Part shown: in pieces, positions 14,237-47,794 of the stretch
Position numbering within the stretch: position 1 is the first letter of the stretch
How the letters are laid out: each line of letters begins with the position of its first letter
Translations under genes and position numbers: made by a program
NCBI GenBank assembly: GCA_963796955.1
Contig: CAWCNJ010000006.1
Location: forward strand, 127,111-191,110
Direction of reading: 5' to 3'
DNA from: Endomicrobiales bacterium
GTDB taxonomy: Bacteria; Elusimicrobiota; Endomicrobiia; Endomicrobiales; JALOBY01
DNA: 64,000 nucleotides
Notes under the pieces: generated by a model
What the model was told of the DNA's origin: nothing
The model's database searches: none
Seen by the model: only the letters and a program-made list of their open reading frames with translations

Positions 14237-15934
14237 ATGAAAAACACTATACAGCGCACCATTATCACGGGATTTCTACTTTGCGGGGCGGCTGCCGCCC
14301 ACGCTGAATTCAACGAACTGGGCAGCAGCGCACGCTCTGCCGGCATGGGGGACTGCTATGTGGCTATCGCCGACGACGCGTATGCCACGTTCTATAACCC
14401 TGCGGGCCTTGGGCGGCTGCACCACAAAGAGATCGCGACCACCTCAAGCCGGCTGCTGATGGGTTTGAGCGACCTTAATACGATCGATGAGAACATCATA
14501 AGCGCGGTGTACGGGACGCAGCTGTACGGCGGCATCGGCCTGGGCATCCATACGTTCGACGTTTCCGGGTTGTACAAGGAAAGCACCTCAATGCTCTCGT
14601 ATGGAAAGCTCGTCGGTAAAGAAGTGTACCTCGGCGCCTCTATGAAATTCATGTCGAAAGACTACGTGCCTAATCTCTACACTGAAAACGCCATAGACTT
14701 TTCAGGCGAATCGTTCGGGCGCGACCCCGTGTTCGCCAACGGGTATTCCAAAGCTTTCATGTCCTACGATCTGGGCAGCTATTACCAGTACAGCAAAAGG
14801 TTGGCCCTGGCCCTGGTGGCGAAGGATATAACCAGCCCCGATACCGGCCTTGCCGCCGCAAACCCGCTGCCCATGACGACAACCCTGGGCCTGTGCTACC
14901 AGGACGAAGGCCTGTTAATACCGCTTGAAATACAGACCAGAAGCGACGCGATAACATACGCGGCCGGCTTTGAAAGATGGCTATTCTCCGACCAGCTGGC
15001 GCTGCGCGCGGGCCTGCAGGAAGGCAGCGGCAATCTGTCGGTGGTGTCGTGCGGCGTGTCATACAGCTATAACAATATCATCCGTTTTGATTACGGTTTT
15101 TCCATGCCCTTGTCGGGTATAACGAACACCAGCGGCTCGCACCGGCTGAGCCTGGTGGTATCGATCGGCAAACCGAAAACGAACACTTTTGAGCTTGCGA
15201 AACAGCCGCGCGATTATATAGACGCGGTCACCGCCTTCGACAAAGGCCAGTACTTTACCGCCTACGATATGTTCGAGACACTGATAAAATCCCTGGAGAC
15301 CAGCCGGCAGTTAAAGGACCACGCCATCGCGTATGTCAAAGAGATCCTTTCCCGGATGCAGGCGAACATCAAGGCGAACGCGGCGCCCTCGGAAGTAGCC
15401 TACGCCAAGGGCCTTATGGCGTACAGCGTGCCGGATTACGAGGATGCTTTGAACGAACTGCAGGTGTTCGCGGGCATTATCCCCGGCAACACGGAAGTGA
15501 ACTATTATATCGAGCTGCTGAAAAAGATGCTGGGTAAAGGATCGGCAAAGCCGCAGGAAAACCAGTCCGGTGAGAACGGCGGGGGCAAGGGCGGCAAAGG
15601 GTCTGACCAGAAAGACGAATTCCCCGGGCTCGACGATAAAGCGCCGGACCCGATGCTGTCGAACATGTCGCGGGACGAATATATCAATTACAAACTGCGC
15701 AACGCGGTAACGGATTTCAACCAGGGGTATTACGACCTGTCGGCGAAAGACTGTTTATACGCCCTGCGCGCGGACCCGAACAAGGACCTGAGCTACGTGC
15801 GGCTTGGCTCGGCGTATTACGCGATGGGTATGCGCCAGTACGCGGTTAAAGCCTGGCAGAAGGCCCTGCAGCTGAACCCGGGCAACGCGGACCTCAGGGA
15901 ATTTATGCAGGAAAAAAATATACCGGTGAAATAA
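14237..15934 (+). CDS. PorP/SprF/PorV-like outer-membrane beta-barrel protein with C-terminal TPR region (copy 1)
   Basis: Signal peptide (AAAHA|EF). N-terminal motif ARSAGMGDCYVAIADDAYATFYNPAGL is typical of PorV/PorQ/PorP-like barrels. Amphipathic beta strands end near RFDYGF...HRLSLVVSIG. TPR motifs follow (YVRLGSAYYAMG...AVKAWQKALQLNPGN). Lies 3 nt after a CTD-bearing gene. Confidence 0.8.
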   Translation: MKNTIQRTIITGFLLCGAAAAHAEFNELGSSARSAGMGDCYVAIADDAYATFYNPAGLGRLHHKEIATTSSRLLMGLSDLNTIDENIISAVYGTQLYGGIGLGIHTFDVSGLYKESTSMLSYGKLVGKEVYLGASMKFMSKDYVPNLYTENAIDFSGESFGRDPVFANGYSKAFMSYDLGSYYQYSKRLALALVAKDITSPDTGLAAANPLPMTTTLGLCYQDEGLLIPLEIQTRSDAITYAAGFERWLFSDQLALRAGLQEGSGNLSVVSCGVSYSYNNIIRFDYGFSMPLSGITNTSGSHRLSLVVSIGKPKTNTFELAKQPRDYIDAVTAFDKGQYFTAYDMFETLIKSLETSRQLKDHAIAYVKEILSRMQANIKANAAPSEVAYAKGLMAYSVPDYEDALNELQVFAGIIPGNTEVNYYIELLKKMLGKGSAKPQENQSGENGGGKGGKGSDQKDEFPGLDDKAPDPMLSNMSRDEYINYKLRNAVTDFNQGYYDLSAKDCLYALRADPNKDLSYVRLGSAYYAMGMRQYAVKAWQKALQLNPGNADLREFMQEKNIPVK

Positions 15935-36100: not shown

Positions 36101-37527
36101 GTCTGGAACAGTTGAACGGTTCGATGGTGTCAATGTCTTCGTTTACCTGGACGAATGCCGCTACGATCATTTCGTTGTTCACTATCAGGGATACCGACCT
36201 GGGCCAGCAGGAGAAATATCATATACAAATATCTACGGTTATAAGTGCGTCGGGTCTTGCCACCTGGACGAGCGGGTATTTTGTCAATTATACGTCGACG
36301 CTGATAACCCAGGGTACCACGGCATATTATTGGCCCGTGCTGACGGCCGGCAATTTCTATTGGTGGCGCGCCTGGGTGGAAGACCAGTATGGCCTATCGT
36401 CGGCTACTTCAACGGCGCTGGTAAGCGGCGGTGCTGCGGTACTGGCGTATAAAACAGTGTTCAATCCGATATACACTGAACCGCAGCCGGGGTATGGGTA
36501 TGGTGTAAGTTTCGGCTCATCGCTCTCCATGGGTGATTTTGACGGCGATGGGTATCAGGATATCGCGGCCTGCGGCATACGGCAGGATGGATATTACACC
36601 GCCGTGTATTTGAACAATAGTTTCGGTGATGGAACATTCAGTGCAAACTATATTGAGCCACAGCCAGGGCTGGGCGGGGTAAGCAACGGCGATGTCGCCT
36701 GGGGTGACTTCAATAATGACGGCAAACTTGACCTTGCGGTCACGGGCTACAACGGCGATCCGGGTATACTCAGGGTGTATATCAATGCGGGGAATAATTC
36801 ATTCTCCGGATACGTTGAGCCGACTCCCGGCTGGGGCCGTTATTGGAGCGCCGTCGCCTGGGGTGATTATAATAACGACGGTAACCTTGATCTTGCGATG
36901 TACGGCGGCGATGACAGCAGCTCCGCAGACGGTATATGCAGGATATACCGCAATAAGGGCGACGGGTCGTTCGATCCGAACTATTATGTGCCGACGGCCG
37001 GCTGGGGCATGAGTTACAATAATACCAATATCGGACGTATCGCCTGGGCGGATTATGACAACGACGGCGATCTGGATATCGCTTTCAGCGGCGACGATAA
37101 CAGCGGTGTGCATGCGCAACGCGTGTACCGCAACAACGGCGACGGCACTTTCTCGGCCGCGCCGGTGTTTACATTAAGCTGGAATGCAGATGATATAGCT
37201 TGGGGCGACTACAATAACGACGGCTTTTTGGACCTCATGGCTACGTCCGGCAATACGGTGGTGGTATATCCCAATAACGGCAATGGTACCATCAACTCGA
37301 CGCCGGTCACCTTAGTCACAAATACGCTAAGCGCATGCCATCTGGTGCTGGGCGATTATGATAACGACGGTAATACCGATGCCGGCGTGATCGGCCAGTC
37401 TAATGGCGCCGGTGTTCTGAAATTCTATCATAACCATGGCAACGGTACGTTTGATGCCACAGATGTTACGCCGCTGCCGGGATGGGGCATTTACGGCAAG
37501 GGTAACATAAGGCTCTGGGGATGTTAA
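26932..37527 (+). CDS. Giant FG-GAP/FN3 adhesin, middle segment of the same frameshifted gene
   Basis: Starts and ends inside FG-GAP blades, has no signal peptide and shows the same module cycle as the flanking segments. Confidence 0.85.
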   Translation: MAGNAGGTYSMSIYRNQNSTFAFGSAPVFEYDPVSAAAWGDFNNDGFMDFAGVDSNSRVAVFLNTGNFTFNTVSPIVLTSTINNFTNVAAGDVDNDGLSDVFVAGSTGTALYYNRNGSFVNQPTFPFWPLYADESIALADYNADGALDAAFAGGDLLGADYFRVFNGKQTNTAPVPPSPSVTLTYSGAAVNRSTFTVTWPPSQYDTGNSSNSLYYQVEVSTFPTALSGDALRITTGGRYQNPWNFGTPGLGGFVRPAVSTSWAGVTGSQMQGFMFSPSTATLAASTSFYFRVQTIDAGLKRSTWSAEYMCVIATYAPSGVTDLTATTNIGINGISLAWTAPGDHALSGNLTSGSQFKIEYSSVGIINTANFDSPPANLAATAIYISTVTTARSRQSWSVPNLQNNTVYWFAVKTENSAGLWSVWQSSADVATYNLQASTRCVAVNHAPNAPANLVQYDGSFVSLSSFTWTNSSTIISSFTLTDPDAGQQVKYCLQITTVSSAGLATWTSGYFWNYTSPLLNQGTTTYYWPTLTAGKFYWWRVWAIDAANATSSTSTALSSGGAAVLTYKTDFDPNGIRIVPGLGLYGNDVYSQLALGDFDNNGTLDLAVTGEDINSLFDFRVYSGNGDGTFNFLPALRNDGTYFASLAWGDYNNDGDLDIALSAGNIENTIGLYVYRNKGNGTFDTTPLQPAGAGVGIGGGLAWGDFNNDGFLDLAASGWINATTEKFYIYKNNCNGSFNTTPVQPDSAMLFGGYEGSPISCADFNNDGLLDISVCADYWQSRLYKNDGDGTFTITNVGVTDVPYGQAYAFGDYDNDGSLDIASPGGVYQNNGAGSFSMGPALPSNGDYYCPSSWADFNNDGKLDLVESGGFDYEYLIELTNNGSSGFSGTEIMPGFGLGDASLAVGDVDNDGDTDIIASGGNGAANLLLFKNKNSEMGNANIAPVPPSGLSYQSSYFISNSTVIITWPAAQYDTGMSSRTLSFQVVIASAPMMLASNQSLITSPGAFITTWAAEADGFGTFNRPVAKIWGSDISPKFGYQLNLTTASITGDTSYYYRVQTIDGDLKRSTWSAESKLYIPMGPAPAAITNLTALTGASGGEIKLSWTFPGADGTANNLVGGVFKIRYSSYTTGSAGFWTDAASNWVDQVNKYQVTIATNATLSKTQSATLVGLTPGVTYYARAWTRDEVGVDSTSWNGNWSALSNGATAWAMTATSPQVVSDLVATNNSAIGAVKLTWTAPGGNGQTGDLNAGSAFKIEYSTVNVITTNNFTAMQSTMAIQSITISTVTRAMTTQTYNVGGLTNNKQYWFAIETENSQGNWSTWYSSATGDTHTTYNILASTVCSFANHQPAISNLEQLNGSLVSMTSFTWTNSGTLMSSFTISDADYGQQVRFVVQITSATNNAGAANWATLFQTARSGLIPQGTTTYIWPALNPNAFYWWRAWAEDSYGLSSTTSTALVSGGSAVLAYKTPFNPAFIEPQPGWGIGWHGPAVSWGDFNGDGYQDLAIGGNDSNNQYMRVYMNNGAGGFNSYVEPQPGHGVRLGEMQWGDFNNDGKLDLAVTGYDGDPGLCRVYINAGNGTFSASYVDATSGWGRYYGNLAMGDYNNDGNLDLAVIGTADINPLRVFRIYRNKGDGTFDTNFVSPQSGWGISGDDSNSTDYTRVAWGDFENDGDLDIATCGIDTNNTQVMRVYKNNGDGSFNSTAALITNTVYDLAWGDYDNDGFLDVIAASATTICAFRNNGNGTLNATPVNILGNLNIANTRISLGDYDNDGNIDIAATGQDIASGQGMLRFYHSLGNGNFDQSPVNILPGWGMYQCGAMALADYDNDGGIDIAVAGQGSGTATDCYLRVFNDMQAQLGNANTAPTAPAISSMTFSYSAPQSTFTITWLPGQYDVSHSSNSVYYELAVSTFSTSLSADSKRLTTGGCYQSPWNFGTPNLGSFIRPAVSTNWAGVKGTQMVGYTITPSTNDYLLNATTFYFRVQTIDSGLTRSAWSSEYTCLASSYVALPGTPAGITDLTAANNSSISGISLVWTATGDSGQSGNLTSGSVFKVEYSTVGILTTGNFDSPPAGLAVTTVNISTTATAMSRQSYNLPGLLTNTTYWFAIKTENGEGQWSTWQSSSDAAAYNLRASTVCKYTNSAPLAPSGLVQYDGSMVSLSSFTWTNSSTIISSFTLTDPDAGQQVKYCLQITTVSSAGLATWTSGYFWNYTSPLLNQGTTTYYWPALTAGNYYWWRVWAIDAFGATSSTTTALMSGGAPVFAYKTHFDPVARNIINGLSVANAFAALGDFDGNGTLDLAITGNTGSGFVSRVYKNNGDGSFNQAPVSIPVIPLGSGLSDGAVAWGDFDNDGDLDIAINGTLNPGNRLFVFRGNGNGTFNPSPIYPNPGWGDTGMITWADFNNDGYLDLAASGYDGSAGHNYIFLNNRLGDFNHTPVEPDATWGPASFDNWVSAADFNNDGNLDLAVVGTDAGYNGHARIYKGNGNGTFNASYVSLDANNDQGYSSITFGDYNLDGNLDVEVGGNDLFAVNTNNGNGTFGTAVTPEGGAGGGQFGNNFGGVFAAWADINNDGKPDMVVSGYRETNSGMVRLELNNGNGTFTPTEIQPALQSFCQVALGDLDNDGDVDAVMLGSSPNYYLAAFFNKNSDMGNANTIPVPPAGLSYQSSYNITNSTVVVTWPAAQYDAGMSSRTLSFQVVIASVPMTLATDQTKIASPGAFLTTWVSQGDGFGAFNRPNFSYRLNLSTAGITADTSYYYRVQTIDGSLARSTWSAESKLYMPMGLAPAAITNLTALKGNSGGELKLSWTSPGADGTANNIYGGVFKIRYSTYTIASAGFWTDAATNWTDPVNKYQITIPTNSVPSVTQSATLVGLTPGGTYYICAWTRDEVGVDSTSWNGNWSALSNGATAWAMTATAPQVVSDLVAVNNAALGVINLTWTAPGGNGQTGDLNAGSAFKIEYSTVNVITTNNFTVMQSTMAIQSITISTVTTAMSRQSYNVGGLTSGKQYWFAIETENSQAAWSTWYSSATGDGHTTYNILASTICSYTNHAPTISSLEQLNGSMVSMSSFTWTNAATIISLFTIRDTDLGQQEKYHIQISTVISASGLATWTSGYFVNYTSTLITQGTTAYYWPVLTAGNFYWWRAWVEDQYGLSSATSTALVSGGAAVLAYKTVFNPIYTEPQPGYGYGVSFGSSLSMGDFDGDGYQDIAACGIRQDGYYTAVYLNNSFGDGTFSANYIEPQPGLGGVSNGDVAWGDFNNDGKLDLAVTGYNGDPGILRVYINAGNNSFSGYVEPTPGWGRYWSAVAWGDYNNDGNLDLAMYGGDDSSSADGICRIYRNKGDGSFDPNYYVPTAGWGMSYNNTNIGRIAWADYDNDGDLDIAFSGDDNSGVHAQRVYRNNGDGTFSAAPVFTLSWNADDIAWGDYNNDGFLDLMATSGNTVVVYPNNGNGTINSTPVTLVTNTLSACHLVLGDYDNDGNTDAGVIGQSNGAGVLKFYHNHGNGTFDATDVTPLPGWGIYGKGNIRLWGC

Positions 37528-37540
37528 TAATGACGGTGTT

Positions 37541-40500
37541 TTGGATGTTGCCGTAACAGGGGGCGATGCAGGCAATAATCCCTATTTCCGCGTTTTCCAG
37601 AATATGGAAGCTCAGCTGGGCGCCGGCAACACAGCGCCTGTGCCGCCTGCTATTTCCAATGTTAATTTCAACTACAGCGCTTCACGCAGCACGTTTACCA
37701 TAACCTGGAATCCTGCGCAATATGACGTAAGCCACTCATCCTGCTCGCTCTATTTCAACGTGGAAGCTTCTACTTCGCCGACGACGCTTTCCGCGAACAA
37801 AATGGGAATGACCGTACCCAACAGCCATTTTGTGCAGACTTGGAATTTCGGCAGTCCAAATCAGGGCAGCTATATCCGGCCCTCAGTTTCCACCAACTGG
37901 GCCGGTGTTGCCGGCACGTCGATGGTCGGCTATACTCTGGCTCCCGCGACGAATACCTGGCTGTTGAACGCTACCACGTTTTATTTCCGCGTCCAAACCA
38001 TCGATTCTGGCCTGATGCGCAGCACCTGGTCGGCGGAGTTTTCCTGCTTTGCCTCTACCGGGGCGGCCGATATCACGCCGCCGGCGGCGATAACGAACAT
38101 CGCCGCAGTTACCGGTTTTACAGCCGGAACGATAAATTTAGCCTGGACCGCTCCCGGTGATGACGGCATAACCGGCAGCATAGTCGGGGGTGCCTTCAAG
38201 ATCAGATATTCCACTTTCACGCCTGCATCGTGGAGCGATGCGGCCGCGAACTGGACGGATTTCACCAATAAATACCAACTCACGATCGCGACGGATGCGG
38301 TGCCCAGCGTTACGCAGTCGTATACCCTCACCGGTTTAACGGGTGGCGTAACGTACTATATTCGCGCCTGGACGCGCGATGAGGTTGGCGTAGACAGCAC
38401 CAGCTGGAACGGCAACTGGTCGGCGTTGTCTAACGGCGCTACCAGCTGGGCGCAGATAAACCACGCGCCCAACGCCCCGGCGAACCTTGCGCAGCTGGAC
38501 GCTTCGCTGGCAAATCTCTCATCCTTCACCTGGACGAATTCAGGCACGATAATTTCTTCATTTACGCTCACCGACCCCGACGCCGGCACACAGGTGCGGT
38601 TCAATCTGCAAATAACTTCCGTTACAACCGGCGGCGCGGCCGATTGGTCAAGATTGTTCGTCAGCACCCGTTCCGCATTATTAAATCAGGGGACTACAAC
38701 GTTTATCTGGCCGACGTTGAACCCGAACGCCTTCTACTGGTGGCGCGTATGGACGGAAGACAGCGGCGGTCTTACCTCTTCGACCTCTACTGCCCTGATG
38801 AACGGCGGACCGGCTGTTCTTGCTTACAAAACGCCGTTTGACCCGAGGTTCGTTGAGCCTACACCGGGCTGGGGATGCGGGCATTACGGCTCGGCGCTGG
38901 CTTGGGGAGATCTTAACGGCGACGGCAATCAAGAACTTGCGGTAGCGGGTATCATAGGCACAACACCGCAAACACACATATACATGAACAATGGCGATGG
39001 CACATTCAACCCGTCGTATAACACCCTTCCATCGGGCGTAGAGATCGGCTGTCCGGACCTGCAATTTAGTGATTTTAATAACGATGGAAAAATGGACCTG
39101 CTTGCCGCCGGCTGGCCCAGCGCCGACCCCGGTATCGTAAGAATATATCTTGGCAATGGCGATGGCACATTAAATCCCACGTATGTTGACGCGATGCCCG
39201 GTTATGGCAGGTATTGGATATCGGCCCGCCTCGGCGATTATGATAACGACGGTAACCTGGATATCGCGATAACCGGTTCTGATGATGCCGGGCCGCAGAC
39301 CTCTACCTTCAGGATATATCACAACAAAGGAGACGGGACATTTGACGCTAATTTCATAGAGCCAAACCCCGGTTGGGGAGTTTCAAATCAGGGACCAGGT
39401 TGGGATCCTGTTGGTGGTCGTCTGCTCTGGGGCGACTACGATAATGACGGCGACCTGGACATCGCCTTATGCGGCCAGGACATTAACAACAACCAGCTGA
39501 TGCGCATCTACCGCAACAGCGGTACGGGTACGTTTTTTAGCGCAACGCCAATTATGCAGGTCAGCGATATAAACGATATTGCCTGGATAGATTATGACAA
39601 TAACGGGTACCTGGATATAGCGTCTTTCTCCGATGCTTCACAGAGAACACGGATTTACAAAAATAACGGCGATGGCACATTCAATGCCACACCCGTGGAG
39701 TTATTCCCCGGTGTGTCTATGCAACACACGAAGATAGCTGTAGGCGATTATGACAATGACGGTAACCCTGATATGTACCTTGTCGGCTGGAACTCGGTTC
39801 AGGGCGACATGGCGGGAGTTTACCGTAACCATGGTGACGGGACGTTTGAGCAGGGCATGATAGCCACCATGCCGGGGTGGGGCATTAATAGCAGCGGAGC
39901 AGTCGCGCTTTCCGATTTTAACAATGACGGCGGGTTGGATATGGCCGTGCAAGGTTTTGGTACCGGTGGCAATCTTAATTTAGGCGTTTTCAAAAATATG
40001 GAAGGGCAACTGGCCAACGCGAATGCACCGCCCATTCCGCCTTCGGCAAGCTTAAATTTCAACTACGGCGCAACAAAGAGCACGTTCACTATAACCTGGC
40101 TGCCGGGTCAGTACGATGTGGGTCATTCGTCTAATTCAGTTTACTTTAATGTTGAAGTTTCGACTTTCCAAACAGCTGTTTCAGCGGATAGAACCAGGAT
40201 AACAAGCGCCGGGCATTTCCAGGAGCCATGGAATTTCGGCAGCCCTAACCTTGGGAACTTTATTCGTCCCGCAGTATCCACAAATTGGGCGGGCGTGACT
40301 GGTACGCAAATGGTGGGCTATACCTTCATGCCATCCACCAGCGCCCTTATGCTGAATGCCACGTACTACTTCCGTACGCAGACGATAGATTCCAGCCTTG
40401 CGCGAAGCACGTGGTCTGTGGAGCAGTCGTACTATTGTAATGACACCATGCCGCCCTCGGCGTTAACTAACCTCGCTGCTGTCACAGGTTTTGGCCCCGG

Positions 40501-41257
40501 AACAATAAACCTTACCTGGACCTCGCCCGGTGACGATGGTCTCAACGGCACTATTACCGGCGGTGTGTTCAAAATCCGCTATTCCACCTATACGCCAACA
40601 TCGTGGGGCGATGCCGCAACGAACTGGACTGATTATACCAATAAATATCAGCTCACGATCGCGACGAATACCGTACCCGGTGTCACACAGTCGTATACCC
40701 TCACAGGCTTAACAAGTGGTGTGACCTACTATATCCGCGGCTGGACGCGCGACGAAGTGGGGGTAGACAGCACCAGTTGGAACGGCAACTGGTCGGCACT
40801 GTCTAATGCGGCTACTTCCTGGGCGCAGACTACTAATATTAACATTGTCATGGACACGGCAACTGTTTCGTTCGGGAACCTGGCGGTCGGTGCATCGACG
40901 ATAACCGTTACCAGTGCCACCATTTACAACTACGGCAACGTTACCGCCACCTTTAAAATGTGCGTGAGCACCAATACGCCGGGAACGCCCTGGTCTATCT
41001 CCCAGTCGTCCGGGGTGGATAAATGCGTGGTCTGGGGCGTGCTTAATTCCACCCAGGCGGTGGACAGTGACTTCGGCGTCGAAGATAAACTGTCATATTC
41101 CTTTACCACCTTCACCTCAACGTATATCGCCTCGAACCAGAACGGTGTCTCAGTGCCGCCCGGCGGCACCAGGATCTTCTGGTACAAACTGCAAATGCCG
41201 CTGGCAAGCAGCACAACGCAACAGCAATCAATAATATTTAAAGTGGGAGGGCAGTAG
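37541..41257 (+). CDS. Giant FG-GAP/FN3 adhesin, C-terminal segment ending in a pilin-like domain
   Basis: The frame upstream of the TTG reads GDVNNDGVLDVAV, i.e. mid-blade. The last ~140 aa align by eye with the three downstream 190-aa proteins. Confidence 0.85.
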   Translation: MDVAVTGGDAGNNPYFRVFQNMEAQLGAGNTAPVPPAISNVNFNYSASRSTFTITWNPAQYDVSHSSCSLYFNVEASTSPTTLSANKMGMTVPNSHFVQTWNFGSPNQGSYIRPSVSTNWAGVAGTSMVGYTLAPATNTWLLNATTFYFRVQTIDSGLMRSTWSAEFSCFASTGAADITPPAAITNIAAVTGFTAGTINLAWTAPGDDGITGSIVGGAFKIRYSTFTPASWSDAAANWTDFTNKYQLTIATDAVPSVTQSYTLTGLTGGVTYYIRAWTRDEVGVDSTSWNGNWSALSNGATSWAQINHAPNAPANLAQLDASLANLSSFTWTNSGTIISSFTLTDPDAGTQVRFNLQITSVTTGGAADWSRLFVSTRSALLNQGTTTFIWPTLNPNAFYWWRVWTEDSGGLTSSTSTALMNGGPAVLAYKTPFDPRFVEPTPGWGCGHYGSALAWGDLNGDGNQELAVAGIIGTTPQTHIYMNNGDGTFNPSYNTLPSGVEIGCPDLQFSDFNNDGKMDLLAAGWPSADPGIVRIYLGNGDGTLNPTYVDAMPGYGRYWISARLGDYDNDGNLDIAITGSDDAGPQTSTFRIYHNKGDGTFDANFIEPNPGWGVSNQGPGWDPVGGRLLWGDYDNDGDLDIALCGQDINNNQLMRIYRNSGTGTFFSATPIMQVSDINDIAWIDYDNNGYLDIASFSDASQRTRIYKNNGDGTFNATPVELFPGVSMQHTKIAVGDYDNDGNPDMYLVGWNSVQGDMAGVYRNHGDGTFEQGMIATMPGWGINSSGAVALSDFNNDGGLDMAVQGFGTGGNLNLGVFKNMEGQLANANAPPIPPSASLNFNYGATKSTFTITWLPGQYDVGHSSNSVYFNVEVSTFQTAVSADRTRITSAGHFQEPWNFGSPNLGNFIRPAVSTNWAGVTGTQMVGYTFMPSTSALMLNATYYFRTQTIDSSLARSTWSVEQSYYCNDTMPPSALTNLAAVTGFGPGTINLTWTSPGDDGLNGTITGGVFKIRYSTYTPTSWGDAATNWTDYTNKYQLTIATNTVPGVTQSYTLTGLTSGVTYYIRGWTRDEVGVDSTSWNGNWSALSNAATSWAQTTNINIVMDTATVSFGNLAVGASTITVTSATIYNYGNVTATFKMCVSTNTPGTPWSISQSSGVDKCVVWGVLNSTQAVDSDFGVEDKLSYSFTTFTSTYIASNQNGVSVPPGGTRIFWYKLQMPLASSTTQQQSIIFKVGGQ

Positions 41258-41412: not shown

Positions 41413-41991
41413 ATGAGTATGAAAAAGAAATTGTTGTTAGCAGTTGGCTTTATTGTAGGGTTGGCCGGAACGGCGATGGCCGGTATACCGAGCGATACGT
41501 TCCAGATAACGTTCACACCGACGGGTTCTCGCGGCGTGATCATATCGTTTGACTCGGCGCCGATCGCGCTGGGCAGTCTTGCGCTGGGGACTACGACGCA
41601 GACGAGCGCGATACCCGTTATCAGTACCGGCACTATCGGTATCATCAGCTACCAGATGTCGGGCGTCATAACAAGCGGAGGCACACCGGCGACGTTTACC
41701 GCCAGGACCAGCACGCAGCCCGCACAATCCGAGGTCTGTGTTCAAGGCCAGTTCTGTACAGCGGCACCCGTTACTTGGGGAGGCAGTAATAACAACATAA
41801 CCACGAGCGCGGTGAACGTCGGCTCAGCAACGAAAGGTTATTACGTTGACCCCAGTTTAACGACCACGATGGATGACATGGCGTTGAATGTTTCTAACAA
41901 CCTATGGGTGCGCCTGATGCTACCGCCGACCGCGTCATATTCCGCCCAGCAGACGATCACGGTAACAATAACGGCACAGGCAGGCTACTAA
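41413..41991 (+). CDS. Secreted pilin/fimbrial-subunit-like protein, paralog 1
   Basis: GGAGG RBS, signal peptide (AGTAMA|GIP), beta-rich T/S/G-rich mature domain, CxxxxxC pair, alternating C-terminal strand TITVTITAQAGY. Confidence 0.75.
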   Translation: MSMKKKLLLAVGFIVGLAGTAMAGIPSDTFQITFTPTGSRGVIISFDSAPIALGSLALGTTTQTSAIPVISTGTIGIISYQMSGVITSGGTPATFTARTSTQPAQSEVCVQGQFCTAAPVTWGGSNNNITTSAVNVGSATKGYYVDPSLTTTMDDMALNVSNNLWVRLMLPPTASYSAQQTITVTITAQAGY

Positions 41992-42016: not shown

Positions 42017-42589
42017 ATGAAAAAGCTACTGTTGTTGACCGTGGGTATTATGGTGGGTTTAGTTGGGCTGGTGTTTGCCGGTATCCCGAGCGATACGTTC
42101 CAGATAACGTTTACGCCGACCGGTTCGCGCGGTGTGATCATATCGTCTGACTCGGCGCCGATCGCGCTGGGCAGCCTGGCATTAGGTACGACGACCCAGA
42201 CGGCAGCGATACCCGTTATCAGCACCGGCACTATCGGTATCACCAGCTACCAGATGTCGGGCGTCATAACAAGCGGAGGCACACCGGCGACATTTACCGC
42301 CCGGACCAGCACGCAGCCAGCGACGACCGAGGTTTGTGTTCAGGGCCAGTTCTGCACAGCGGCGCCCGCAACCTGGGGAGGGAGTAATAACAACATAACG
42401 ACAAGCGCGGTGAACGTCGGTTCAGCAACGAAAGGTTATTACGTTGACCCAACGTTAACCACAACGATGGATGACATGGCGTTGAATGTTTCCAACAATC
42501 TGTGGGTAAGGCTGATGCTGCCGCAAACAGCGTCATATTCGGCGCAGCAGACGATCACGGTAACGATAACGGCGCAGGCAGGTTATTAA
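42017..42589 (+). CDS. Secreted pilin/fimbrial-subunit-like protein, paralog 2
   Basis: Strong AGGAGG RBS; mature part nearly identical to paralogs 1 and 3. Confidence 0.75.
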   Translation: MKKLLLLTVGIMVGLVGLVFAGIPSDTFQITFTPTGSRGVIISSDSAPIALGSLALGTTTQTAAIPVISTGTIGITSYQMSGVITSGGTPATFTARTSTQPATTEVCVQGQFCTAAPATWGGSNNNITTSAVNVGSATKGYYVDPTLTTTMDDMALNVSNNLWVRLMLPQTASYSAQQTITVTITAQAGY

Positions 42590-42614: not shown

Positions 42615-43187
42615 ATGAAAAGACGATTATTGTTAGCAGTGGGTTTATTGGTAGGTTTGGCCGGAGCGGCAATGGCCGGTATCCCGAGCGATACGTTCCA
42701 GATAACGTTCACACCGACAGGTTCGCGCGGTGTGATCATATCGTCTGACTCGGCGCCGATCGCGCTGGGCAGCCTGGCATTAGGTACGACGACCCAAACG
42801 GCAGCGATACCGGTTATCAGCACTGGCACTATCGGTATCACCAGCTACCAGATGTCGGGCGTCATAACAAGCGGAGGCACACCGGCGACATTTACCGCCC
42901 GGACCAGCACACAGCCAGCGACGACCGAGGTCTGTGTTCAGGGCCAGTTCTGTACGGCGGCGCCCGCTGTCTGGGGAGGGAGTAATAACAACATAACGAC
43001 AAGCGCGGTGAACGTCGGTTCAGCAACGAAAGGTTATTACGTTGACCCCAGTTTAACGACCACGATGGACGACATGGCGTTGAATGTTTCTAACAACTTG
43101 TGGGTACGGTTAATGTTGCCGGCGACAGCGTCATATTCCGCTCTGCAGACGATAACTGTGACGATAACGGCGCAGGCGGGCTATTAA
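42615..43187 (+). CDS. Secreted pilin/fimbrial-subunit-like protein, paralog 3
   Basis: Strong GGAGG RBS; mature part nearly identical to paralogs 1 and 2. Confidence 0.75.
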   Translation: MKRRLLLAVGLLVGLAGAAMAGIPSDTFQITFTPTGSRGVIISSDSAPIALGSLALGTTTQTAAIPVISTGTIGITSYQMSGVITSGGTPATFTARTSTQPATTEVCVQGQFCTAAPAVWGGSNNNITTSAVNVGSATKGYYVDPSLTTTMDDMALNVSNNLWVRLMLPATASYSALQTITVTITAQAGY

Positions 43188-43200
43188 ACGTAAGGAGCGG

Positions 43201-44127
43201 ATGTATATGAGAAAGAAACAGTACCTTATCTTAATGGGTATGGCGGCGCTTATAATGCTTCCCGTGAAGGCGCAGGCCCGCGTCGGTTTGCTGGCGCAGT
43301 TTGCCGACGATGTGATCCTGGAAAACCTTGAGCTGGGCAAGCCGTATAACTTGCGAACGCTTGGCCACCTGCCATATATTGTCACCAATGCCGGTGACAA
43401 GACGGTGGACGTTGCCATTGAGATCAAGCTGCCGGGCAAAGAGAATCTTAAACCCGGTTACGAACCGTTGGCCGATCCCGGCTGGGTTCAGGTGGTGCCC
43501 AATAAATTCCGTCTGGATCCCGGGGCGCAGGGTGTCAGCGAAATTGTTATTACGATCCCCAATGAAGAGGCGTACCGTAATAAGAATTATCAGTTTGACA
43601 TCTGGGCCCATACGCTGGGTTCACAGTTCATGGCAGCGGGAGCCGAGCACCGAATGCGCATGTCGACCGGCAAAGGTCCTCAGACCCTCGCGGCTGAAAA
43701 GAAAGAGAAGGCCATGCTTTCGCTTGACTTCGATATGGGGCCGGCGAATATGTACCTGATAGGCGTTCCACCCGGAAAGACCTATGACGCGAAAGCTGAA
43801 AAAGGATCTTCCCTGAAACTTACCAACAGGGGCGGCGCGGCTATCAAAGTAAAGGTTGTCAGCGTACCTTACTCAGCAGGCATACATCCACCTGAAGGGT
43901 ATACGGTCTCACCTGATCCGTCCTGGTTGAAGTGCAAACCTGACATGGTGAAAGTGGGCGAGCTTTCGATCAAAGAAGTCAAATTGTACGTTACGATCCC
44001 TGACAAGGCGGATTATTACGGGCAGAAATACGCCTTCTTGTTAAAATGCGAATTTCAGGGAACGGAAGTGCCGCTCGAAATGTACAGCCAGGTGTTGGTA
44101 ACGGTACCGCAGGCAATTGGCAAGTAG
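43201..44127 (+). CDS. Secreted two-domain Ig-like protein, putative pilus-assembly chaperone (PapD/DUF916-like)
   Basis: Signal peptide (PVKAQA). Internal duplication TNxG...GYxxxxDPxW...P...TIP...Y in both halves. WVQVVPNKFRLDPG resembles the chaperone/DUF916 'P..F.L.PG' motif. The start may be ATG 43207, which has better RBS spacing. Confidence 0.55.
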   Translation: MYMRKKQYLILMGMAALIMLPVKAQARVGLLAQFADDVILENLELGKPYNLRTLGHLPYIVTNAGDKTVDVAIEIKLPGKENLKPGYEPLADPGWVQVVPNKFRLDPGAQGVSEIVITIPNEEAYRNKNYQFDIWAHTLGSQFMAAGAEHRMRMSTGKGPQTLAAEKKEKAMLSLDFDMGPANMYLIGVPPGKTYDAKAEKGSSLKLTNRGGAAIKVKVVSVPYSAGIHPPEGYTVSPDPSWLKCKPDMVKVGELSIKEVKLYVTIPDKADYYGQKYAFLLKCEFQGTEVPLEMYSQVLVTVPQAIGK

Positions 44128-44191: not shown

Positions 44192-46093
44192 ATGAACAAC
44201 AGGGTTAGGAACACCATCATGTGGTTAGGGAGATCGGCAGCCGTTATGGCGCTGCTGCTCGCTACCTCTATGCCTGTATCTACTCTGTGGGCGGATTGGG
44301 GTGATTCGTTCTCCATTACCTTCACGCCTGTCGCAAGTTTAGCTCCGAACGCGGTTACAGATCTCTCTGCGGTCAATACCGCAAATGAAAGCTTTATAAA
44401 TATCATCTGGACGGCCCCGTCGGTTCCAACACCGGTGCCGGGCGCTGTCGCCTCATACGAAGTAAGGGCGGCGACGTTCAGCGTCGATTCGCTTTTAAAC
44501 GATACTACGGCCTGGTGGAACGCGGCTACCGTATCGAATTCATTCCCGGAATCGGTCTTGCCGGGAACCACTGAATCATTCCTGATCGGCAATCTGGCAG
44601 TCAGCAATACCTGGTATTTCGCCATCACAAGCAGATCACCAGGCGGAAAATTTTCTCTTATAGATGAAAAGGCTGCCGCACCCGGCAGTCAGGCGTACGT
44701 ATTTACATCGGATGTTCAGCCTGTGCCGCCGACAGGTTTGCAGGTTATACCCAGCACCTCACCCGTTGTGGTGCTTAAATGGGATGACATGAAAGCACAA
44801 CGGGGATACGTTGATTTCGATTACTACCGTGTGTACCGCTCGACGAACGCTTCACCGTTCTCGGCGTTCTTCCCTATCGGTGCCAGTACCGGTACGGTCT
44901 TCATTGACGGATTGGTTTCCGCCGGCGCCACCTATTATTACTGCGTAACAGCTGCAGATAAGCCGCCTCAGGTGTTGGTCAGTACGCCGTCTGCGACAGT
45001 AACGGCTTGCGTCACACTGCCGCCGCGTCAGAAAGTCGACCTGACCATACCGCTTCCCCCCTCGGGTGTGAAGCTGTCAGTTTCAAATTACCACCCGGTG
45101 ATAAATTTTAACGCGCCGTTATTCAACACTGACGGCACGCCCTGTATGGACCTTGATAAATGCGAAATATACCGCGCTACGGACATACATGCCGATTGGG
45201 ATGCGGTCGGTTTCGCGCCGTGCGGCGCAGGAGCGGCGGGTCAGTGGATCGACACCGGCATAAATCTTAAAAATTCGGCGATCTATTATTATAAAGTGGA
45301 AAGTGTCGATGCTTCCGGCAACACCAGCGCCGACTCGATGATCTGTGATACCAGTGTGGATTTGAACGTGATCGCCGTTTCATCCGATAAACAGCTGTAC
45401 GCAGTCGTCCCCCAAAGCGAAGCAGCAGCGCTTTACCGGAACAGTTCCAGGAACGATGATGTTGATATCGTGGTCAACAGTCTGGATGTGCCCGGTGTCA
45501 GCCAGCTTATCACTGCCGGAGAATTCAACGCCGTGAATGCTACCACACGGCAGAAAATATCCGGCTTCCAATTTGATAGATCGACGGTGAAGGTTGTTTG
45601 GAAATACGGCCTGAACCCGATGTTAAAGTCAAATGCAGCGGCCCATACACCGGTTGACATCGATAAAGAACTCTCGATCTTCTGGAATAACGGCGTCGAA
45701 TGGATCAAGCTGAGCAAAGTAATGAATACCGATTCCGCACAGGTAACGGTTAAGCATCTTGGCAAGTTCATGATAAAACAATCGCTGAAGGCTGAGAACT
45801 TTACCCTCACGAAGGTCTACCCTCAGATATTCACGCCCAACGGCGATAATCGTAATGACTATGTGGTGTTCCAGTTCGAAAATCCCAAAGACGACGATGT
45901 CTCCGGCAAGATATACGATATTCGCGGCGCATATATCAGCGCACTGACGAAGGCAGCAGATAACGCCTCCCTGATCTGGGACGGCACCAAAGACGGCGGA
46001 AAGGTTGCAGAGCCGGGAGCGTACGTCTATCAGATAGAGGTGATAGGCTCCGACGCGAAGGTGATCAACGGGGTAATAATATTGGCGAAATAA
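44192..46093 (+). CDS. FN3-repeat anchor protein with a pilin-like N-terminal strand and a C-terminal T9SS type-B-like CTD
   Basis: Signal peptide, then DWGDSFSITFTP. The remainder is colinear with the last ~585 aa of the locus-1 giant protein. Ends FTPNGDNRNDYVVF...INGVIILAK. Confidence 0.85.
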   Translation: MNNRVRNTIMWLGRSAAVMALLLATSMPVSTLWADWGDSFSITFTPVASLAPNAVTDLSAVNTANESFINIIWTAPSVPTPVPGAVASYEVRAATFSVDSLLNDTTAWWNAATVSNSFPESVLPGTTESFLIGNLAVSNTWYFAITSRSPGGKFSLIDEKAAAPGSQAYVFTSDVQPVPPTGLQVIPSTSPVVVLKWDDMKAQRGYVDFDYYRVYRSTNASPFSAFFPIGASTGTVFIDGLVSAGATYYYCVTAADKPPQVLVSTPSATVTACVTLPPRQKVDLTIPLPPSGVKLSVSNYHPVINFNAPLFNTDGTPCMDLDKCEIYRATDIHADWDAVGFAPCGAGAAGQWIDTGINLKNSAIYYYKVESVDASGNTSADSMICDTSVDLNVIAVSSDKQLYAVVPQSEAAALYRNSSRNDDVDIVVNSLDVPGVSQLITAGEFNAVNATTRQKISGFQFDRSTVKVVWKYGLNPMLKSNAAAHTPVDIDKELSIFWNNGVEWIKLSKVMNTDSAQVTVKHLGKFMIKQSLKAENFTLTKVYPQIFTPNGDNRNDYVVFQFENPKDDDVSGKIYDIRGAYISALTKAADNASLIWDGTKDGGKVAEPGAYVYQIEVIGSDAKVINGVIILAK

Positions 46094-47790
46094 ATTATGA
46101 AAAACACTATACAGCGCACCATTATCACGGGATTTCTACTTTGCGGGGCGGCTGCCGCCCACGCTGAATTCAACGAACTGGGCAGCAGCGCACGCTCTGC
46201 CGGCATGGGGGACTGCTATGTGGCTATCGCCGACGATGCGTATGCCACGTTCTATAACCCCGCAGGCCTTGGGCGGCTGCACCACAAAGAGATCGCGACC
46301 ACCTCAAGCCGGCTGCTGATGGGTTTGAGCGACCTTAATACGATCGATGAAAATATCATAAGCGCCGTGTACGGGACGCAGCTGTACGGCGGTTTCGGCC
46401 TGGGCATCCATACGTTCGACGTTTCAGGGCTGTACAAGGAAAGCACCTCAATGCTCTCGTATGGAAAGCTCGTCGGCAAAGAAGTGTACCTCGGTGCCTC
46501 GATGAAATTCATGTCGAAAGACTATGTGCCTAATCTTTACACTGAAAACGCCATAGACTTTTCAGGCGAATCGTTTGGGCGCGACCCCGTGTTCGCCAAC
46601 GGGTATTCCAAAGCTTTCATGTCCTACGATCTGGGCAGCTATTACCAGTACAGCAAAAGGTTGTCCATGGCCCTGGTGGCGAAAGATATAACCAGTCCCG
46701 ATACCGGCCTTGCCGCCGCAAACCCGCTGCCCATGACGACAACGCTGGGCCTGTGCTATCAGGACGAAGGCCTGTTAATACCGCTGGAAATACAGACCAG
46801 AAGCGATGCGATAACGTATGCGGCCGGTTTCGAACGCTGGCTCTTTTCCGACCAGCTGGCGCTGCGGGCGGGCCTGCAGGAAGGCAGCGGTAATTTGTCG
46901 GTAGTGTCCTGCGGTGTATCATACAGCTATAACAATATCATCCGTTTTGATTACGGTTTTTCCATGCCCTTGTCGGGTATAACGAACACCAGCGGCTCGC
47001 ACCGGCTCAGCCTGGTGGTATCGATCGGCAAACCGAAAACGAACACTTTTGAACTGGCGAAACAGCCGCGTGATTATATAGACGCGGTCACCGCCTTCGA
47101 CAAAGGCCAGTACTTTACCGCCTACGATATGTTCGAGACACTGATAAAATCCCTGGAGACCAGCCGGCAGTTAAAGGACCACGCCATCGCGTATGTCAAA
47201 GAGATCCTTTCCCGGATGCAGGCGAACATCAAGGCGAACGCGGCGCCCTCGGAAGTAGCCTACGCCAAGGGCCTTATGGCGTACAGCGTGCCGGATTACG
47301 AGGATGCCTTGAACGAACTGCAGGTGTTCGCGGGCATTATCCCCGGCAACACGGAAGTGAACTATTATATCGAGCTGCTGAAAAAGATGCTGGGAAAAGG
47401 ATCGGCAAAGCCGCAGGAAAACCAGTCCGGTGAGAACGGCGGGGGCAAGGGCGGCAAAGGGTCTGACCAGAAAGACGAATTCCCCGGTCTCGACGATAAA
47501 GCGCCGGACCCGATGCTGTCGAACATGTCGCGGGACGAATATATCAATTACAAACTGCGCAACGCGGTAACGGATTTCAACCAGGGGTATTACGACCTGT
47601 CGGCGAAAGACTGTTTATACGCCCTGCGCGCGGACCCGAACAAGGACCTGAGCTACGTGCGGCTTGGCTCGGCGTATTACGCGATGGGCATGCGCCAGTA
47701 CGCGGTTAAAGCCTGGCAGAAGGCTCTACAGCTGAACCCGGGCAACGGGGACCTCAGGGAATTCATGCAGGAAAAAAATATACCGGTGAA
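45970..47790 (+). repeat. ~1.8-kb near-identical direct repeat of ~14110-15930 (offset 31,860 bp)
   Basis: The lines at 14161 and 46021 are identical, and similarity continues to the stop codon of the barrel gene. Confidence 0.95.
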
Positions 47791-47794
47791 GTAA
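46097..47794 (+). CDS. PorP/SprF/PorV-like beta-barrel + TPR protein (copy 2)
   Basis: 565 aa; differs from copy 1 at about four residues (I>F, AL>SM, A>G). Confidence 0.8.
   Translation: MKNTIQRTIITGFLLCGAAAAHAEFNELGSSARSAGMGDCYVAIADDAYATFYNPAGLGRLHHKEIATTSSRLLMGLSDLNTIDENIISAVYGTQLYGGFGLGIHTFDVSGLYKESTSMLSYGKLVGKEVYLGASMKFMSKDYVPNLYTENAIDFSGESFGRDPVFANGYSKAFMSYDLGSYYQYSKRLSMALVAKDITSPDTGLAAANPLPMTTTLGLCYQDEGLLIPLEIQTRSDAITYAAGFERWLFSDQLALRAGLQEGSGNLSVVSCGVSYSYNNIIRFDYGFSMPLSGITNTSGSHRLSLVVSIGKPKTNTFELAKQPRDYIDAVTAFDKGQYFTAYDMFETLIKSLETSRQLKDHAIAYVKEILSRMQANIKANAAPSEVAYAKGLMAYSVPDYEDALNELQVFAGIIPGNTEVNYYIELLKKMLGKGSAKPQENQSGENGGGKGGKGSDQKDEFPGLDDKAPDPMLSNMSRDEYINYKLRNAVTDFNQGYYDLSAKDCLYALRADPNKDLSYVRLGSAYYAMGMRQYAVKAWQKALQLNPGNGDLREFMQEKNIPVK

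Follow-up and report, generated by a model that had tools for sequence, protein, structure and literature searches.

Donor-strand fibres are known from Proteobacteria, which use ushers, from Bacillota (TasA and, recently, the sortase-anchored WxL/Elr pili) and from archaea. Chaperone-usher pili are tip-first fibres that rely on N-terminal extensions with alternating hydrophobic residues and on donor-strand exchange (DSE); their two-domain adhesin has a C-terminal pilin domain, and their chaperone adopts the PapD fold. Fibre length and base are set by PapH, the last subunit, which donates but does not accept and is itself a complete pilin whose groove is unable to exchange. Here, we describe a locus from Elusimicrobiota, a deep-branching, mostly uncultured diderm phylum, that probably encodes a DSE pilus with a different kind of base. 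The locus lies in a stretch of 64,000 nucleotides (the window; contig CAWCNJ010000006.1 of the Endomicrobiales bacterium assembly GCA_963796955.1, positions 127,111 to 191,110), and all window features given below are on the plus strand. Its key element is a protein of 633 amino acids (the anchor, 44192..46093) which, behind its signal peptide, begins with a copy of the N-terminal strand of three pilins encoded upstream; this protein would be a donor-only terminator and base of the fibre, tethered via a C-terminal sorting domain (CTD) of the kind used in type IX secretion (T9SS) and the barrel that goes with it.

The closest known parallel appears to be the WxL/Elr pilus of Enterococcus faecalis with its base ElrB. 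According to the available text of an October 2026 preprint (bioRxiv 10.64898/2026.10.17.759780), the pilins ElrD/C carry a 15-residue N-terminal donor strand, the tip adhesin ElrA bears its acceptor domain at the C-terminus, the DUF916/DUF3324 protein ElrE is a chaperone similar to those of chaperone-usher systems, and ElrB, by AlphaFold modelling, has a donor strand and no acceptor domain and ends the fibre at an LPxTG anchor; a screen of one proteome per genus in 81 phyla placed the Elr system in Bacillota only. As far as that text goes, the Elusimicrobiota system is alike in having a modular tip adhesin whose C-terminal acceptor domain lacks the donor strand, small pilins whose N-terminus bears a donor strand of about 15 residues, a two-domain PapD-like candidate chaperone (p308) encoded in the operon, and a base with a donor strand, no acceptor and an envelope tether, the tether being of a kind other than LPxTG. 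It differs in its diderm host, in its donor motif (D-x-hydrophobic-x-hydrophobic-T-hydrophobic-T-P versus [S/T]-x-[G/A]-x-[V/I]-x-F), in that p308 has no match to the transmembrane-helix region which the preprint assigns to ElrE, and in its base, which is an FN3 stalk of 350-2100 amino acids with a T9SS-type CTD and a PorV-like barrel, whereas ElrB is described as a 13-kDa LPxTG protein. No Pfam match to WxL (PF13731), DUF916 or DUF3324 was obtained at E up to 0.1 for the pilins, the C-terminus of the 1238-residue adhesin protein or p308. Judged by these comparisons, the system would work like WxL/Elr and, with no sequence membership found, is not filed as a member; in mechanism rather than sequence family, it would contradict the preprint's statement, as given in the available text, that the Elr chaperone-pilin-base architecture is found in Bacillota only (bioRxiv 10.64898/2026.10.17.759780).

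With chaperone-usher pili the locus would share the fibre logic, an adhesin with a C-terminal pilin domain, a PapD-fold protein and a last subunit that donates without accepting; it differs in that no usher was matched and in that a CTD and a 14-strand-type barrel, not an usher pore, are proposed for anchoring. The likeness to PapH suggested in a preliminary description of this DNA holds for function, as a terminator, and fails for structure, because PapH is a complete pilin and the anchor is without any pilin domain. T9SS cargos with a type-B CTD are paired with a PorP/SprF-like partner, as in SprB-SprF, and known cargos are single polypeptides. Here, too, a CHU_C-type CTD lies directly upstream of a putative PorV/PorP-family barrel gene, in both loci of the window (1 and 2), and a SprA-like open reading frame (ORF) is found in the genome; the differences are that the CTD protein would carry a non-covalent fibre, that the barrel has a TPR tail, that the phylum is Elusimicrobiota and that the barrel and SprA matches score below cut-off. 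A further likeness is to TapA-TasA of Bacillus subtilis, where a non-pilin accessory or anchoring protein donates an N-terminal strand to a fibre subunit; according to the part of the paper available, TapA acts as a chaperone-like nucleator at TasA initiation (PMC10151520) rather than as a terminal base, and the host is monoderm. No Pfam or PDB-sequence match to TasA/camelysin was found for the window proteins, the only link being at fold level.

The strand peptide of anchor and pilins

Residues D35-S49 of the anchor read DWGDSFSITFTPVAS, encoded by 44294..44338, and follow a signal peptide placed at residues 1-34 (44192..44293), with a cleavage site inferred from the sequence and from the A-x-A-like context of homologues. 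All three pilins (pilin 1, 192 amino acids, 41413..41991; pilin 2, 190 amino acids, 42017..42589; pilin 3, 190 amino acids, 42615..43187) read the identical GIPSDTFQITFTPTGS right after the signal peptide, the copies being encoded by 41482-41529, 42080-42127 and 42678-42725, respectively. The common strand with its core D-x-F-x-I-T-F-T-P, which the preliminary description had pointed out, can be read directly from the translations. In a six-frame translation of the whole genome ITFTP occurs six times, four times in the anchor and the three pilins and twice in frames of 27 and 29 codons. When a profile of the pilin family was searched against the 3,921 ORFs of 100 amino acids or more of the same genome, only five matches were obtained, namely the three pilins, the C-terminus of the 1238-residue protein and residues 18-57 of the anchor, which match profile positions 8-45 with an independent E-value of 5e-3. 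The anchor match consists of signal peptide plus strand only, and since BLASTP and profile searches match nothing beyond the peptide region, the claim that the remainder of the anchor is unrelated to the pilins stands. Sequence comparison thus confirms a similarity between anchor and pilin peptides that is far beyond chance.

In the anchor, the hydrophobic core of the signal sequence extends to about residue 24, and residue 35 is the first of the strand peptide. Of 30 homologous anchors, 25 have an Ala two residues ahead of the 11-residue core, typically with A-x-A-like surroundings, and in the 30 anchors the peptide lies about 4 residues ahead of the FN3 start P-P-x-P-V-T-D-L. Loss of the peptide together with the signal peptide, which the preliminary description had named as a possible refutation, is unlikely, because the peptide sits behind an A-x-A-like site. 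The alternating hydrophobic residues that had been claimed for the strand recur in the peptides compared: among 62 pilin and 30 anchor peptides, 89-100% and 97-100%, respectively, have hydrophobic residues in columns 5, 7 and 9; Thr predominates in columns 6, 8 and 10, and Asp in column 3. The 27-nucleotide cores encoding the peptide in the window are identical at 19 of 27 positions with synonymous differences; therefore, the similarity is one maintained in the protein sequence and does not stem from recent copying, and the nucleotide sequences argue against any recent gene conversion of the peptide within the window.

Pilin operons and their anchors across Elusimicrobiota

An exhaustive HMMER search with the pilin returned 50 cluster representatives with E-values of 1e-3 or better, 27 of them with 1e-10 or better. 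Most have 180-215 amino acids, and they align with a conserved mature N-terminus x-S-D-x-F-x-I-T-x-T-P-x-G-x-R-G-V; some members begin with DWGDSF, as the anchor does. The profile matched 96 of 401 sampled Elusimicrobiota genomes from 60 of 123 genera, with zero matches in two large families of this phylum sample (0/89 and 0/118). Of 60 other genomes of the same order searched with the single protein, only 2 had matches, in each case to the pilin body within a larger frame. Altogether, 47 loci were analysed, made up of 39 distinct genome regions, 7 further regions and the window, after a duplicate (L053, identical to L011) had been dropped. Their recurring gene order is a large protein ending in a pilin-like domain, 1-7 free pilins, p308, a CTD protein and a PorV-like barrel, and p308 is conserved next to the pilins in nearly all loci. 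The profile match begins at position 1-10 in 81 of 83 free pilins and at positions 34-40, just past the strand, in 20 of 26 adhesin-type domains (one further adhesin-type row is a broken pilin with masked residues). Every adhesin-type domain ends within 14 residues of the C-terminus of its protein, and the N-termini of the adhesins are without the strand motif.

At the N-terminus of CTD-bearing anchors downstream of pilins, the peptide recurs in many Elusimicrobiota loci. A position-specific scoring matrix (PSSM) of 11 columns was built from pilin N-termini, with the scored locus left out, and slid over the first 150 residues of frames of at least 150 amino acids. Scores above the 99th percentile (8.87) of 1107 background frames were obtained for 24 of 37 CTD-bearing frames of at least 300 amino acids; the background frames that scored highest were broken pilins, the N-terminal half of the L070 anchor, which is split between frames, and an anchor-like frame of 3696 residues that is cut by its contig end. 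Another 40 regions, chosen around homologues of the anchor's first FN3 domain, formed a second set. It held 24 further anchors that have an intact N-terminus and lie directly downstream of a pilin or p308, and 10 of these exceeded the PSSM threshold. Anchors that carry the strand span 349-2137 amino acids, have type-A-like or type-B-like CTDs and come from many genera. They keep the strand pattern, while signal peptides and the GxRGV motif that follows the strand in pilins are not kept.

Homologous proteins without pilin genes nearby begin differently. L123, a CTD protein of 1690 amino acids with an accompanying barrel, whose 7.3 kb of upstream sequence contain neither a pilin nor p308, has no peptide and starts with FN3 right after the signal peptide, as does C4_188530, a pilin-less homologue from the genome of the window. 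No strand-like segment was seen in L135, L139, L140 and four FN3 proteins without a CTD, none of which is near pilins, and the genome of the window has four other CTD proteins beside PorV-like barrels which, like the giant protein of locus 1, are without the peptide. Eight regions of the second set are uninformative: four have a peptide-like segment with the contig ending too close upstream (L133, L134, L149 and L150), in three the protein N-terminus is off the contig (L124, L151 and L153), and one is masked (L148). The preliminary description had singled out this distribution as a check on its proposal, and the anchor-like proteins seen to have no pilins nearby are without the peptide.

The same description had asked whether the anchor peptide co-varies with the local pilin N-terminus, and it does. 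Over 30 loci compared in register, anchor and pilin peptides of the same locus reach a BLOSUM62 score of 28.8 and 6.0 identities in 11 positions, compared with 17.0 and 3.8 in 11 across loci; the own locus ranks first in 7 of 30 cases, with a median rank of 4, and 0 of 20,000 label shuffles attained the observed own-locus mean. Matched pairs are, for instance, NPDDLSLTVTI/NPDSLTLTVTI, LTADLTLTVGI/ATADLTITVTP and TSDSLSITIQL/VSDGLTITIQP. L072, L074, L081, L092 and the non-operon rows were left out of this comparison.

Fused and split anchoring modules

The locus-1 giant closes with ~590 residues (12455..14233) that share 58% identity with residues 47-633 of the anchor; there the anchoring module is covalently fused and without the peptide. 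The alignment starts at V47, directly after ...ITFTP, and where the anchor has the peptide the giant reads ...SNGATCWAMRVKTLPPPPVTDLTAV; its junction, ...NGATCWAMRVKTLPPPPVTDLTAV, consists of the end of an FN3 repeat and a short linker, followed by the anchoring module. The earlier observation that the homologous module lacks the peptide is thus borne out. In locus 2 a similar FN3 repeat end (...SNAATSWAQ) is followed by a domain of ~140 residues that closes the adhesin. This domain (residues ~1097-1238, 40829..41254) belongs to the C-terminal ORF of the locus-2 giant adhesin (37541..41257, 1238 amino acids), which contains FG-GAP repeats and FN3 domains (Pfam FG-GAP_3, 3e-44, and fn3). It is colinear with the pilin body (25% identity by BLASTP; profile positions 35-176 match residues 1097-1235 at 6e-15) and is without profile positions 25-34, which correspond to the strand. 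Judged from these alignments, locus 1 reads as a single adhesin-anchor chain and locus 2 as adhesin-[acceptor], three [strand+acceptor] pilins and [strand]-anchor.

The barrel genes of the two loci (14237..15934 and 46097..47794) encode PorV-like/TPR proteins with 561 of 565 residues in common (99%), and the two CTDs are nearly identical over their last ~45 residues (45950-46090 and ~14090-14230), whereas the rest of the modules is 58% identical. Because near-identity is confined to the barrels and the last ~45 CTD residues, the sequences suggest a recent homogenisation or gene-conversion tract restricted to the CTD end plus barrel.

Structural models of pilin and p308

Neither the pilins nor p308 has a Pfam or NCBIfam match at E up to 0.1. 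An AlphaFold 2 (AF2) model of mature pilin 2 computed from 39 sequences (pLDDT 87.2, pTM 0.81) has its first strand from residue 17, and residues 1-16 are not modelled as a strand. The top PDB match in Foldseek is the TasA fibre 8aur (E 4.5e-4, TM 0.49), followed by FimG, CfaB, CS20, TLP-1a, Saci_0406 of the Sulfolobus thread and AbpA of the Pyrobaculum bundling pili, all of which are donor-strand fibres. VIA-align gave the best score with TLP-1a (9ikj_A; Z 7.6, root mean square deviation (rmsd) 5.8, 140 aligned residues), then TasA (Z 6.4), with Fim, Cfa, Csu and Pap pilins at Z 5-6.2. For TLP-1, disorder is predicted at the N-terminus, which serves as the donor strand once in the fibre (PMC11494351); the pilin model is similar in that its N-terminal strand is not formed in the monomer, and TLP-1 differs in forming a tubule in which, according to the same source, subunit n+4 donates, and has no sequence match to the pilin. 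Since these structural matches are middling, the modelled fold is consistent with a donor-strand subunit and not decisive. The nearest named ESM-Atlas cluster is WxL (0.84), which we treat as a lead only; no WxL-domain chain was among the 50 matches listed in a structural search of 48,161 representatives. A match of the pilin profile to a PilA fusion among PDB sequences (E 0.0038) is marginal and was regarded as chance.

The p308 protein (43201..44127, 308 amino acids) is secreted; in its AF2 model (pLDDT 78.8, pTM 0.47) a helix connects two beta-sandwiches. Both domains can be aligned with domain 1 of YadV, CsuC, Caf1M, FimC, SfaE and PapD (Z 9.5-11.3, rmsd 2.3-3.9, 101-119 residues) and also with ASH/PapD-like domains and the Enterococcus WxLIP, the match of domain 1 to WxLIP (9i1y_B) reaching Z 11.9 (rmsd 3.4, 123 residues). 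At the level of the models p308 would therefore be a protein of two PapD-like/ASH sandwich domains and a candidate pilin chaperone; the PapD-family entries PF00345 and PF02753 gave no Pfam match at E up to 0.1.

Proposed fibre assembly and competing explanations

These observations can be joined in a model of the fibre. The pilin would be an incomplete beta-sandwich preceded by an N-terminal extension of ~16 residues with the core D-x-hydrophobic-x-hydrophobic-T-hydrophobic-T-P, and the giant adhesin, with its acceptor-only pilin-like C-terminal domain, would form the tip of the fibre; an adhesin ending in a pilin-like domain without the strand is a further element that the donor-strand picture requires. 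The anchor would plug the last pilin and, because it carries the donor strand only, could not accept another subunit, so that it would end the fibre and, by way of its FN3 stalk, the T9SS-type CTD and the adjacent PorV-like barrel, attach it to the outer membrane. p308 would be the likely periplasmic chaperone. Locus 2 would then be a split version of locus 1, joined by strand exchange and lengthened by pilins. We consider it probable that the anchor is the donor-only terminator and base of a DSE pilus; every test of the terminator/base proposal at the level of sequence came out in its favour, and we infer strand insertion, the order of assembly, the role of p308 and the export route from the combined evidence.

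That two Thr-rich strand-like segments should match by chance is next to negligible: the peptide is short and pairwise BLASTP gives merely E 0.016, yet it is unique in the genome, gives a specific profile match, stands at the same position in dozens of loci and co-varies with the local pilins. The last of these properties would also be expected if pilins and anchor had co-evolved with one local reader, that is, if the peptide were a recognition tag for p308 or for an export or sorting machine which marks a common pathway and links nothing. Its place at the extreme mature N-terminus of both pilins and anchor, together with the conservation of p308 in the operon, would suit such a tag. We nevertheless judge it rather unlikely. 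The adhesins would have to share the pathway, yet their N-termini are without the motif, and it would be left unexplained why the C-terminal pilin-like domain of the adhesins lacks exactly this strand; the alternation of hydrophobic residues and Thr, as well as the donor-strand fibres among the fold matches, points to a beta-strand that completes a sandwich. Moreover, it is the groove and not the donor strand that the chaperones of chaperone-usher and Elr systems bind, according to the available text of the Elr preprint (bioRxiv 10.64898/2026.10.17.759780).

The peptide could also lack any intermolecular role, either as the first strand of each protein's own fold or as the relic of a captured pilin 5' end. 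A history of splitting and capture is made plausible by the fused anchor module in locus 1, the profile match spans the signal peptide as well as the strand, and a few large proteins have a strand-like segment in cis, ahead of their pilin-like domain. A relic should decay, however, and the strand pattern is kept across genera and across different anchor bodies, tracks the local pilin sequence and is conserved at the protein level with synonymous DNA differences, which indicates selection. Nor does a strand of the anchor's own fold sit well with a peptide that lies N-terminal to a complete FN3 start (PPxPVTDL), when the pilin-less L123 and C4_188530 have FN3 directly after the signal peptide. 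Taken together, a peptide without an intermolecular partner is distinctly unlikely.

Several observations weigh against the donor-only terminator and base as we propose it. In the PSSM scan, 13 of 37 anchors fall under the threshold. These include two non-operon frames (L087_3_6098, off a contig end, and L084_9613), the CTD half of the frame-split L070 (L070_8362) and a fusion of p308 and CTD (L091); the others are diverged anchors in which a strand-like segment was recognised by eye (L006, L007, L012, L063, L072, L074, L077, L085 and L092). The remaining 14 of 24 anchors of the second set have an alternating segment of 9-14 residues that was likewise, and subjectively, judged by eye. The co-variation test treats related loci as independent, and its 30 peptides were picked after the scores had been seen. 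As many as 6 of 26 adhesin domains match the profile from positions 16-31 and may carry a strand-like segment in cis. Concerning the fold, the search of 48,161 representatives, which is independent of Foldseek, found no chain at Z of at least 8 for the pilin model, and the middling matches of this model (Z 5-7.6) can reflect a common sandwich arrangement. Finally, no outer-membrane usher (PF00577) was found at E up to 0.01 in the genome, which at 81% completeness does not prove absence, and no CTD was found on pilins or adhesin, which leaves their route over the outer membrane unexplained.

A wider scenario, which we put forward tentatively and regard as doubtful, would take up this last point: a widespread, usher-less DSE pilus of Elusimicrobiota's own, assembled in the periplasm by the PapD-like protein, in which the CTD on the donor-only base is the sole secretion signal, the remaining subunits are exported piggy-back via a SprA-like translocon, and the PorV-like/TPR barrel holds the fibre. 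If true, it would be a third independent marriage of chaperone-guided strand exchange and envelope anchoring, beside usher and sortase. With the donor-only base itself, the locus suggests that the same strand-exchange principle has found a different outer-membrane solution in Elusimicrobiota, with the profile present in about a quarter of the sampled genomes. What appears to be new, from the sequence evidence, is the combination, in a diderm, of a donor-only base with a sorting domain of T9SS type and a PorV-like barrel. The model provides a testable function for four families without a Pfam or NCBIfam name (the pilin, p308, the anchor N-terminus and the strand-less adhesin module), offers a natural pair of fused and split versions within one genome and prompts one to ask by what route subunits without a CTD pass the outer membrane. 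A literature search found nothing on a donor-strand pilus in Elusimicrobia, and papers on type IX secretion in Elusimicrobia were off-topic by title or abstract; publications joining donor strand, type IX secretion and pilus concerned Porphyromonas type V fimbriae or were reviews.

Proposed tether, barrel and secretion genes

The anchor contains FN3-like domains and, at residues 543-629 (45818..46078), a putative type-B-like T9SS CTD that matches PF13585 (CHU_C) at E 1.9e-8 with 34.8 bits (cut-off 27) and TIGR04131 with 29.2 bits, below the cut-off of 35. The barrel gene (46097..47794, 565 amino acids) starts 4 nucleotides past the anchor stop; its product, a PorV/PorQ-like outer-membrane barrel fused to a tail with TPR matches, reaches 2.2e-16 and 60.4 bits against NF033709 (PorV_fam; below the cut-off of 90) and E 3e-3 and 17.6 bits against PF11751 (below 22.3), and is the probable membrane partner of the anchor CTD. 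A lipoprotein or sortase-type signal was rejected, there being no Cys after the signal peptide and no LPxTG. Type V (FimA/Mfa) pili are made from lipoprotein precursors and use C-terminal strands; this type was set aside here, where there is no lipobox and the strand is N-terminal.

On contig 8 a frame of 1828 amino acids (~81.9-85.1 kb) has four colinear sub-threshold matches to SprA (TIGR04189), the best with 55.5 bits (cut-off 200), and the PorU matches in the genome cover only the CTD-like end of PorU. At least 12 frames with CTD-like ends and about 20 PorV-like barrels are present in the genome. Together with the matches to SprA and PorU, the core components covered by the search, these appear to represent a T9SS-like apparatus in Elusimicrobiota that has no recognisable PorU catalytic domain. 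A secreted beta-rich protein of 234 amino acids on contig 2 (80637-81341, minus strand), which resembles the pilins in composition and gave no match to the pilin profile, is placed between two CTD proteins and near a PorV-like barrel.

Between anchor and barrel, many of the loci have a small protein of signal peptide plus CTD (~100 mature residues), which is not present in the window locus. It was seen in 19 frames, for example L056:11865-12341, L060:8148-7636, L063:8453-8010, L071:11932-12324 and L085:4394-4026, and might be a plug or competitor for the barrel.

Locus layout and related loci

The window is part of contig 6 of a genome of 2,103,342 bases in 11 contigs, with 50.7% G+C and an estimated completeness of 81%. 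The N-terminal parts of the locus-2 adhesin are probably encoded by two giant ORFs listed upstream of the 1238-residue ORF, at 17648-27109 (3153 amino acids) and 26932-37527 (3531 amino acids), which overlap by 178 nucleotides. The 1238-residue ORF starts 13 nucleotides past the preceding stop and has no signal peptide, and the three ORFs are in alternating frames; this layout could stem from a frameshift within the gene, from misassembly of repeats or from decay into a pseudogene.

Some loci contain related proteins in other settings. Two metagenome-assembled genomes titled Clostridia bacterium (L008 and L009) have large proteins that end in a strand-less pilin-like domain (profile positions 35-180, 1e-30), and one ESM-Atlas neighbour cluster is mostly Chloroflexota. 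The pilin-like family may reach beyond Elusimicrobiota, or the Clostridia bins may be mislabelled.

The gene order in L081 (G130 contig 57) is deviant, with pilins, p308, a CTD protein of 431 amino acids, an adhesin of 951 amino acids with a C-terminal pilin-like domain and then the barrel. In L091 (9510-8260, G009 contig 4), and also in L004, a protein of 416 amino acids combines a p308-like first domain with a T9SS-type CTD; beside the L091 fusion lie a PorV-like barrel and a protein of 339 amino acids whose pilin-like C-terminal domain apparently keeps a strand-like segment in cis. From its domain composition, this arrangement appears to be a compact variant of the pilus system.

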